Source: Escherichia coli (GTDB lineage: Bacteria > Pseudomonadota > Gammaproteobacteria > Enterobacterales > Enterobacteriaceae). Taken from it: a stretch of DNA of 64,000 bases. The stretch lies in NCBI RefSeq assembly GCF_016026235.1, contig NZ_CP065613.1; one strand, given 5' to 3'. Within the stretch, counting starts at the first letter, position 1, and each line of letters starts with the position of its first letter. The notes beneath the pieces are model-generated. The model was not told the DNA's origin, ran no database searches, and was given only the letters and a program-made list of their open reading frames with translations. The position numbers and the translations under genes are program-made. Below, one piece after another: positions 54,821 to 57,799 of the stretch.

Positions 54821-54845
54821 ATAAAAATGGGGCCTTTCAGCCCCA
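54821..54845 (-). terminator. rho-independent terminator of hslVU
   Basis: Hairpin ggggc tgaaag gcccc then T-run on the reverse strand. Confidence 0.6.
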
Positions 54846-54875: not shown

Positions 54876-56207
54876 TTATAGGATAAAACGGCTCAGATCT
54901 TCATCTGCCACCAACGCATCCAGATGTTTGCTCACATAATCTGCGTCAATAGTGATATTTTGACCGCTTAAATCGCTGGCGTCGTAGGAAATCTCTTCCA
55001 TTAAACGCTCCAGAACAGTGTGTAAACGACGAGCACCGATGTTTTCGGTAGATTCGTTCACCTGCCATGCCGCTTCCGCGATGCGTTTAATACCGGAGTC
55101 GGTAAACTCGATATTTACGCCTTCAGTCGCCATCAGTGCTTTGTACTGCACGGTGATAGAGGCATTCGGCTCGGTCAGAATACGCTCGAAGTCGCTGGTG
55201 GTCAGCGCCTGCAGTTCAACGCGGATTGGCAGACGACCTTGCAGTTCCGGGATCAGGTCAGACGGTTTCGCAATCTGGAACGCGCCAGAAGCGATAAACA
55301 GAATGTGGTCAGTTTTGACCATCCCGTGTTTGGTGGAAACGGTGCAACCTTCTACCAGCGGCAGCAGGTCACGCTGAACACCTTCACGAGAAACATCCGG
55401 ACCGGAAGACTCGCCGCGCTTACAGATTTTGTCGATTTCGTCGATAAACACGATCCCGTGCTGCTCAACAGCGTCGATAGCGTCTTGCTTCAGCTCTTCC
55501 GGGTTCACCAGTTTCGCCGCTTCTTCTTCAATCAGCAGCTTCATGGCGTCTTTGATTTTCAGCTTACGCGCTTTTTGCTTCTGACCGCCCAGGTTCTGGA
55601 ACATGGACTGCAGCTGGCTGGTCATCTCTTCCATGCCCGGAGGAGCCATAATTTCAACGCCCATCGGTGCTGCGGCAAGATCGATCTCGATTTCTTTGTC
55701 ATCAAGCTGGCCTTCACGCAGTTTTTTGCGGAATGCCTGACGAGCAGCGGACGGTTCCTGCTGCTGTTCGGTCTGTCCCCAGTTGTTTTTAGCCGGTGGG
55801 ATCAGCACGTCGAGAATACGTTCTTCTGCCAGTTCTTCAGCGCGATAACGGTTTTTCTCGATAGCCTGGACGCGTACCATTTTTACGGCGGCATCGGTCA
55901 GATCGCGAATAATAGAATCCACTTCCTTACCGACGTAGCCCACTTCGGTGAATTTGGTCGCTTCAACTTTGATGAACGGCGCATTCGCCAGCTTAGCCAG
56001 ACGACGGGCGATTTCAGTTTTACCGACACCGGTCGGGCCGATCATCAGGATATTTTTCGGGGTCACTTCATGGCGCAGCTCTTCGTTGAGCTGCATGCGA
56101 CGCCAGCGGTTACGCAGAGCAATCGCCACAGAACGCTTGGCGTTGTCCTGGCCGATGATGTGCTTATCCAGTTCGCTGACGATTTCGCGTGGGGTCATTT
56201 CAGACAT
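54876..56207 (-). CDS. hslU: ATP-dependent protease ATPase subunit HslU
   Basis: 443-aa ORF; Walker A GPTGVGKT. Confidence 0.95.
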
Positions 56208-56216
56208 GGGAGATCC

Positions 56217-56747
56217 TTACGCTTTGTAGCTTAATTCTTCGATGGTGTGGAAATGGTTGGTATAGATGCAAATGTCGCCTGCAATATCCAACGCCTTTTC
56301 AGCAATTTCACGGGCGCTAAGTTCAGTGTTTTCTAACAGCGCGCGCGCCGCAGCCTGGGCGTAAGGGCCGCCGGAGCCGATAGCAATAAGATCGTTTTCT
56401 GGCTGCACCACGTCACCGTTACCGGTGATGATAAGCGATGCAGTTTCATCCGCGACTGCCAGCAGTGCTTCAAGTTTGCGCAGCATGCGATCGGTACGCC
56501 AGTCTTTTGCCAGCTCAACGGCGGCTTTAACCAGATGGCCCTGATGCATTTCCAGTTTACGTTCAAACAGTTCGAACAGCGTAAAAGCATCCGCAGTACC
56601 GCCCGCAAAGCCCGCGATGACTTTGTCGTTGTACAGACGGCGGACCTTTTTCACGTTGCCTTTCATTACGGTATTGCCCAACGTGGCCTGACCATCACCA
56701 GCGATGACCACATGGCCGTTACGGCGTACGCTTACTATAGTTGTCAC
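56217..56747 (-). CDS. hslV: ATP-dependent protease subunit HslV
   Basis: 176-aa [14 protein letters not shown]; Thr at position 2. Confidence 0.95.
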
Positions 56748-56814
56748 GAGCTGACCCCTTGGTTACGAATACAGAGTACAAACCCCGTACAAAAGTACGG
56801 GGCATAATGCAATT

Positions 56815-56846
56815 ATAGATGGGGGGGATTTTGAGGGTTTCAACCC
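56815..56846 (-). promoter_or_regulatory. sigma-32 heat-shock promoter of hslVU
   Basis: Reverse strand reads gTTGAAAccctcaaaatcccCCCCATCTat, matching -35 TTGAAA and -10 CCCCATNT; overlaps the ftsN 3' end. Confidence 0.6.
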
Positions 56847-57799
56847 CCGGCGGCGAGCCGAATGCAGTTTGTATGACCCGCCATCTTCAACCGATTGAGG
56901 GTGCTGTCTGCGTTCTCTTTGCCTTTCACCGGGCCAATGACCACACGATTCCAGCCATTGTTGGTGGTAATTTTTGAGTCAAAGCCTTCGAACGCCAGCT
57001 GAGCACGTACCGTCTCTGCCTGTTCCGCGCCTCTGAACGAACCGCACTGCACCATCCAGCGGCGTTCGTCTTTTTTCTCCGCCGTCGGTTTTGGCGCGTC
57101 AGCGGCACGAGTAACCGGCGCAGCTTGCTGCGGCTTCGACTGCGCGGTCGTGTGCGCAGGGGTTTGCAGCAGATCCTGGTACGGCTGCTGAGTAGAAGCC
57201 GGTTTAGACTGGCGCGGTTGCGCTTGTACCGGCGCGGCTTGCGACGTACGCGTCTGCTGCTGCCAGCTTTGTTCAGTCGTACGCGACTGCTGAGCCAGGC
57301 GTTGCTGTTCCGCTAATTGCTGCGCCTGACGTTGGCGCTGTAGCGTTTGCTGACGCTGTTCCGGCGTCTGTTCATTCCACGGAACCTCAACCAGCTGCGT
57401 TGGCTGCTGGCGCATATCAGCCTGCATTTGTTCAAGAAGCTGACGTTGTTCTGGTGTCAGTTGCTCCGGCGTTTTCACTTCACCACCAGCAGAAGGTTCT
57501 GTGGGCGCACGCACACCCGGCTGGCGACTTTCCAGCTCTTTGATGTAGCGCCAGCGTTCTTCTGGTTTTGGTGGTAGTCCGTTTCCGGTCACTTTCTGGC
57601 TTTGCAGCGTCTCGGACTCTTCTTTCTTGTGATGCGTAATGAAGTACAGACCACCGATAAAGGTCACAAGAACGGCGGCAGCAATAGCGACCATAGCGGG
57701 AGAAACCGCAGGCAGATTTCGTTGCTTTTTCCGTGAGGTGCTCTTTTTTCGCCGCGAAGGTGCCGGTTGGCTGCGGCGTACATAATCTCGTTGTGCCAC
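56840..57799 (-). CDS. ftsN: cell-division protein FtsN
   Basis: 319-aa ORF; N-terminal TM, Gln/Pro-rich linker, C-terminal SPOR domain. Confidence 0.95.
   Translation of the reverse strand: MAQRDYVRRSQPAPSRRKKSTSRKKQRNLPAVSPAMVAIAAAVLVTFIGGLYFITHHKKEESETLQSQKVTGNGLPPKPEERWRYIKELESRQPGVRAPTEPSAGGEVKTPEQLTPEQRQLLEQMQADMRQQPTQLVEVPWNEQTPEQRQQTLQRQRQAQQLAEQQRLAQQSRTTEQSWQQQTRTSQAAPVQAQPRQSKPASTQQPYQDLLQTPAHTTAQSKPQQAAPVTRAADAPKPTAEKKDERRWMVQCGSFRGAEQAETVRAQLAFEGFDSKITTNNGWNRVVIGPVKGKENADSTLNRLKMAGHTNCIRLAAGG

Follow-up and report, generated by a model that had tools for sequence, protein, structure and literature searches.

The window analyzed here is a 64,000-nt stretch of Escherichia coli DNA (contig NZ_CP065613.1), in which the region of interest is the junction between ftsN and hslV. 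Between 54 and 61 kb, the ORF list places menA, hslU, hslV, ftsN, cytR and priA on the minus strand. The reading frame of ftsN ends in ...GCC GCC GGG GGT TGA and is separated from hslV by a gap of 92 nt, which holds most of the elements listed in Table 1. When a 401-nt query across the junction was compared with complete E. coli genomes, 5425 of 5426 contained a match, with the flanking genes annotated as ftsN and hslV. In MG1655 (NC_000913.3) the corresponding coordinates are 4122287 for the start of hslV and 4122380 for the end of ftsN, so that subtracting 4065540 from a K-12 position gives the window position. Over the 141 nt around the promoter and hairpin, identity to MG1655 was 100%. Both elements are already described and curated, and biologically nothing in the window differs from the published E. 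coli hslVU (clpQY) locus. The promoter has been in the literature since 1993 (Chuang et al. 1993) and the leader hairpin was characterized in 2009 (Lien et al. 2009, PMC2681174), the latter report being the sole return of a literature search with the promoter and hairpin sequence strings. A paper on the Klebsiella RNA-RNA interactome mentions hslV and ftsN only in passing.

Table 1. Features of the ftsN-hslVU region, in window coordinates.
Feature	Position	Strand	Description and source
ftsN CDS	56840..57799	-	Stop TGA at 56842-56840; ORF list, RefSeq annotation of identical E. coli sequence
Sigma-32 -35 element TTGAAA	56838..56843	-	Spans the third base of the last ftsN Gly codon plus the stop (T-TGA-AA)
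C7 homopolymer	56821..56827	-	End of spacer and start of -10 element; sets the 13-nt spacing
Sigma-32 -10 element CCCCATCT	56817..56824	-	-15 to -8 counted from the measured start, dnaK P1 numbering; 3' of the ftsN stop
TATAAT	56812..56817	-	Overlaps the 3' end of the -10 element; sigma-70/sigma-S-like
hslVU +1	56809	-	62-nt leader; differential RNA-seq site RVS_(II)-4120372 on U00096.2 (Romero et al. 2014)
5' leader stem-loop	56782..56803	-	9 bp, UUUU loop, from mRNA +7; folding, covariation, published mutants
Rfam RF02401 'ClpQY promoter' match	56745..56802	-	Hairpin through start codon; 63.6 bits (gathering score 42; E = 1.6e-13) over positions 1-57 of the 57-position model
hslV Shine-Dalgarno AAGGGG	56755..56760	-	Sequence; GGGG nearly invariant in the alignment
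hslV (clpQ) CDS	56217..56747	-	GTG start at 56747-56745; ORF list, RefSeq annotation
hslU (clpY) CDS	54876..56207	-	Second gene of the operon; ORF list, RefSeq annotation

Upstream of hslV, TTGAAA is followed by CCCCATCT after a spacer of 13 nt. This arrangement (TTGAAA-N13-CCCCATCT, 56843-56817) conforms to the sigma-32 consensus, in which a -35 element TTGAA(A) and a -10 element CCCCATNT lie 13-14 nt apart. It was the single match to TTGAAA-N12-15-CCCCATNT in the 64-kb window, where 0.05 would be expected; CCCCATNT by itself is not rare (5 occurrences, 7.6 expected). A lone CCCCATTT was seen at 54825-54832 on the minus strand, between hslU and menA and a short way ahead of the menA start, with no TTGAAA at sigma-32 spacing. 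The hslVU promoter resembles dnaK P1 and groE (TTGAA-N13-14-CCCCATNT) in its hexamers, the 13-nt spacer and the distance from the -10 element to +1. It differs from them in that the -35 element is embedded in the stop codon of an upstream essential gene, ftsN, and in that the spacer ends in a slippage-prone C7 homopolymer. Published genetics point in the same direction. In lacZ fusions and northern blots with rpoH, rpoS and double mutants, both basal and 42°C-induced clpQ::lacZ expression and clpQY mRNA were dependent on RpoH and independent of rpoS (PMC2681174). In the same study, a C-to-T change in the -10 element (CCTCATCT) lowered expression 1.7-fold and abolished heat induction. We found that the primers of that study match the window sequence base for base and that its primer F3 confirms the mutated -10 base. 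The hslVU promoter is thus very probably an RpoH (sigma-32) heat-shock promoter, which is followed by a 5' leader stem-loop. A first-pass annotation of the window had proposed sigma-32-type TTGAAA and -10 elements on the reverse strand, and this proposal is borne out by the dnaK P1-like hexamers and spacing, the measured start and the published RpoH dependence. It had also described the promoter as overlapping the 3' end of ftsN, which is true of the -35 element, located in the stop codon, but not of the -10 element, which lies past the stop.

The position of the transcription start agrees with these elements. In the dnaK P1 scaffold (-39 to +15) of a paper on the sigma-32 open complex, TTGAAG begins at -34 and is followed by a 13-nt spacer and CCCCATTT at -15 to -8, with +1 located 8 nt past the last T. 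Applied to the hslVU hexamers, this geometry puts the final T of CCCCATCT at -8 and predicts +1 at 56809, the same position as the start measured by differential RNA-seq. A mapped start incompatible with the hexamers had been named at the outset as the result that would overturn the promoter assignment; the two proved compatible, and the refutation fails. For this comparison, position 4120372 on U00096.2 was converted to 4122349 on NC_000913.3 by adding 1977 bp and then to window 56809 by subtracting 4065540, a conversion whose step from U00096.2 to U00096.3 rests on the difference in total length (4639675 for U00096.2, 4641652 for the later version) plus the coordinates of oriC, which shift likewise by 1977, from 3923767 to 3925744. 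A different start, 71 nt upstream of the GTG, was quoted by Lien et al. 2009 (PMC2681174). This start corresponds to window 56818, inside the -10 element, and because such a position is geometrically incompatible with CCCCATCT as a -10, we regard the 71-nt figure as imprecise. Besides, primer F5 for the "71-nt" construct of that study actually begins 73-74 nt upstream. The measured start fits the hexamers, and its 62-nt leader corrects the literature value of 71 nt. No rows for the hslVU locus appear in the supplementary tables of Cappable-seq, ROSE, Cho 2014 and Kim 2012.

Another RNA end was noted close to this start. The Term-seq table of Adams et al. 2021 includes a 3' end of RNA at 56807 on the plus strand (NC_000913.3 4122347), classed as antisense to ftsN, which is 5 nt past the palindromic hairpin when the latter is read on the plus strand and 2 nt from the sense start site. 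It could come from a genuine antisense RNA, shortened as far as the hairpin, or be an artefact of the library at the 5' end of hslV mRNA; no plus-strand start site near 56807 was present in the Romero 2014 list.

The C7 homopolymer that sets the spacing of the promoter is a deletion hotspot, and deletions in it arose independently in two heat-adaptation studies. BM28 strains carried a 2-bp deletion in the run (PMC10044804), and two rescued REL1206 populations carried a 1-bp deletion at -74/+19, that is, window 56821 (PMC7750951). The run may act as a slippage-prone switch of expression. Details of the promoter and leader such as the start site, the covariation described below, the embedded -35 element and the C7 target are useful for engineering hslVU expression or interpreting it.

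With regard to the leader, the stem CCCCGUAC-UUUU-GUACGGGG (56802-56783) consists of eight perfect Watson-Crick pairs, and a closing G-U pair extends it to 56803-56782. The 8-bp hairpin starts 37 nt past the ftsN stop, and 35 nt separate it from the hslV GTG. A transcript that begins at 56809 has six unpaired nucleotides (CAUUAU) ahead of the stem; folding suggested that, if two extra upstream nucleotides were present, the 5' end could be paired in a longer, imperfect helix. The fold of the whole leader had a modest z-score (-1.75 to -1.95). Perfect GC-rich 8-bp hairpins with loops of 3-8 nt were found 13 times in the window, compared with 2.8 +/- 2.1 in dinucleotide shuffles. Twelve of the 13 hits, roughly four times what shuffling would lead one to expect, fell at ten other sites (12655, 14186, 17400, 19580, 39288, 43635, 47455, 48573, 59556 and 61702), which are probably terminators or REP-like elements. 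The ftsN-hslV hairpin and the sequence down to the start codon matched Rfam family RF02401 over the full length of the model (Table 1), and the same family scored above threshold in 10 of 20 diverse relatives. The family is based on Lien et al. 2009.

We further compared 80 hslV loci, chosen by protein only, which came from Enterobacterales and a few Vibrionaceae and Alteromonadales. A search with TTGA[A/T]N and CCCCANNN, allowing a 13- or 14-nt spacer, detected a sigma-32-like motif upstream of hslV in 78 of them. In most Enterobacterales loci the ftsN stop was inside the -35 element as in E. coli (stop at -95, -35 at -96). The segment GGGGGTTGAAA (56838-56848), which encodes the FtsN Gly-Gly-stop and contains the -35 element, was almost invariant across Enterobacterales (loci L002-L073), third positions of the Gly codons included. 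This invariance of synonymous positions suggests a DNA-level constraint from the embedded promoter. Among the 70 loci with a simple hairpin, 49 had it 12-14 nt past the -10 8-mer, and it typically ended 27-36 nt before the start codon. The stem sequences varied widely (CCCCGUAC, GCCCUGAGC, CCCCACAC, ACUCCGCGC and GCCUUACAA), and stems of 14-17 bp were found in Serratia, Yersinia and Photorhabdus.

Across Enterobacterales, the stem shows strong covariation. RNAalifold, run on a plain MAFFT alignment of 48 leaders, recovered the stem with compensatory changes at all eight predicted pairs. In addition, 62 leaders were aligned with a covariance model containing a 9-pair stem, and 60 distinct sequences entered the covariation analysis. 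In this model-based alignment, which is fitted to the structure and hence leans towards the stem (the RNAalifold/MAFFT result is free of that bias), double (compensatory) changes occurred in 9 of 9 pairs, amounting to 88 double-change cells where shuffles gave 18.2 +/- 4.3. Paired cells made up 90.9% in the same alignment, compared with 33-57% when the partner was slid by 1-3 columns, and none of 500 shuffles reached the observed covariation score. This covariation agrees with selection on the structure of the stem and rules out a chance hairpin. A compensatory change was also seen in a close Escherichia relative: in E. coli SCPM-O-B-8794 (L002:780-851), whose HslV and FtsN are 99% identical, a U-A pair of the stem is replaced by C-G (CCCCGCAC/GUGCGGGG) and the loop is AAUU. 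A megablast search with this variant leader returned no match among complete E. coli genomes.

As to what the hairpin does, the published mutants bear on mRNA stability. Deletion of 40 bp of the leader, or of the inverted repeat, lowered both mRNA and ClpQ protein, and in a rifampicin chase the message without the hairpin decayed faster (PMC2681174). In the same study, a mutant in which the 3' arm was changed to T's (S-IR) mimicked the deletion, and one in which both arms were exchanged for their complements (R-IR) regained mRNA and function; no effect of Hfq was found. The constructs used for stability were driven by pBAD, with 5' sequence from the vector in place of the native start (PMC2681174). 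The first-pass annotation had reported a perfect hairpin at 56783..56802 in the hslV 5' leader, with correct coordinates and sequence, and had suggested that it could modulate translation or stability; of these two roles, stability stands on the basis of the published mutants, and translation is unsupported since the Shine-Dalgarno sequence is free of the stem.

The most likely sequence of events is as follows. Sigma-32 polymerase recognizes TTGAAA (-34 to -29) and CCCCATCT (-15 to -8) and initiates at 56809, giving a transcript with CAUUAU at its 5' end, after which the 9-bp GC-rich hairpin folds. The hairpin then protects hslVU mRNA from decay, and the published mutants show that it does so through its structure rather than its sequence. 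We infer that the stem may stabilize the message by hindering 5'-end-dependent decay, that is, RppH action and RNase E access, as in ompA and papA. The stabilizers of these two genes are similar in that a leader hairpin near the 5' end raises mRNA half-life and structure matters more than sequence. However, six unpaired nucleotides precede the hslVU stem, and classical 5'-terminal stabilizers are said to tolerate only a few. These six nucleotides exceed that tolerance, and the exact mechanism proposed for the protection is thus tentative.

Several other explanations were considered for the promoter and the hairpin. The hexamer overlapping the 3' end of the sigma-32 -10 element is a perfect TATAAT and might be used by sigma-70 or sigma-S as a -10 element to express hslVU, at the basal level if not more generally. 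Many relatives have a sigma-S-like CTATACT, rpoH mutants keep residual expression (PMC2681174), and sigma-70 activity ~55 bp ahead of the start codon was among the predictions of a promoter calculator (PMC10044804). However, TATAAT has no -35 element at 16-18 nt, and the scan called no sigma-70 promoter in the region; neither an rpoS mutation nor a mutation of the putative sigma-S -10 had an effect, the latter with data not shown (PMC2681174). Also, the hexamer ends 2 nt before the measured start at 56809, too short a distance, so that it was rejected as the -10 of that start. We consider a contribution of such a promoter very unlikely and retain sigma-32 as the factor behind the measured start. 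A controlling role of the hairpin in hslV translation, such as that of an RNA thermometer melting at high temperature, comes to mind since hslV is a heat-shock gene. RNA thermometers are known in the leaders of other heat-shock genes such as ibpA. In the hslV leader, however, 22 nt separate the end of the stem from the downstream Shine-Dalgarno sequence, which together with the start codon took part only in weak alternative pairings on folding. The Shine-Dalgarno sequence lies outside the stable helix and is not sequestered, and a translational or thermometer role was therefore rejected. In addition, a GC-rich stem of 9 bp would stay folded at 42°C, and no thermosensitive segment was found in the published work, where transcriptional and translational fusions behaved alike (PMC2681174). 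Thermometer control of hslV is extremely improbable.

The hairpin may also, or mainly, belong to the upstream gene, as an intrinsic terminator or 3'-end protector of the ftsN transcript, with the hslVU promoter nested between the stop codon and the terminator. It is the sole strong structure in the ftsN-hslV gap, and it shares with Rho-independent terminators a GC-rich stem of 8-9 bp, a short loop, a location directly past a gene end, and homologues with a full T-run in Erwiniaceae and Pectobacteriaceae. Homologous hairpins followed by 5-7 T's occur in Tatumella, Pantoea stewartii, Ca. Pantoea persica, Pectobacterium, Dickeya and Rosenbergiella, and that of Tatumella was called a terminator by the scan. 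The E. coli hairpin differs from Rho-independent terminators, as it lies downstream of a promoter and lacks both a sufficient U-tract and a mapped 3' end. Its tail past the 9-bp stem, TTGTACTC, falls short of the five T's in eight that characterize the U-tract of an intrinsic terminator, and the scan called no terminator with the tail UUGUACUC. Similarly, no minus-strand 3' end appears at K-12 41223(1-3)x in the Term-seq tables of Adams et al. 2021, absence from called peaks being weak evidence. In Photobacterium, where the end of the ftsN homologue is far upstream, a canonical terminator of its own precedes the promoter, a point in favor of the terminator reading; however, a small leader hairpin is kept there despite the separate terminator, which argues for a role specific to the leader. 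Besides, the stability phenotype was seen on hslV mRNA itself (PMC2681174). On balance, a function in ending or protecting ftsN RNA is a minor but credible possibility. The hairpin might even be put to dual use, ending or 3'-protecting ftsN RNA and capping the hslVU RNA that starts 6 nt upstream, with the copies bearing a U-tract (Erwiniaceae, Pectobacteriaceae and Tatumella) acting as an attenuator close to the promoter that keeps sigma-32-driven transcription of hslVU in check; we hold this scheme to be unlikely. For E. coli we favor the leader stem as a stabilizer of hslVU mRNA.

The T-run hairpins deserve a comment of their own. In nine loci, leader hairpins followed by 5-7 T's and located ~27-52 nt upstream of hslV look like canonical intrinsic terminators. 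They lie ~6-35 nt downstream of the sigma-32 start, and sigma-32 transcripts would have to get past them. Leader length varied as well. Longer leaders of ~80-180 nt were observed in some genera (L042, L046, L050, L052, L063 Photorhabdus; L029, L039, L048, L067, L068), and the Photorhabdus leader has a 17-bp stem. In Pectobacterium zantedeschiae, Siccibacter, Mangrovibacter and Xenorhabdus, sequence is inserted between the promoter and hslV. Finally, in Vibrio sp. Hep-1b-8 (L079, ~1070-1125) at least seven tandem CTCGCCT heptamers lie directly upstream of the hslV promoter region.
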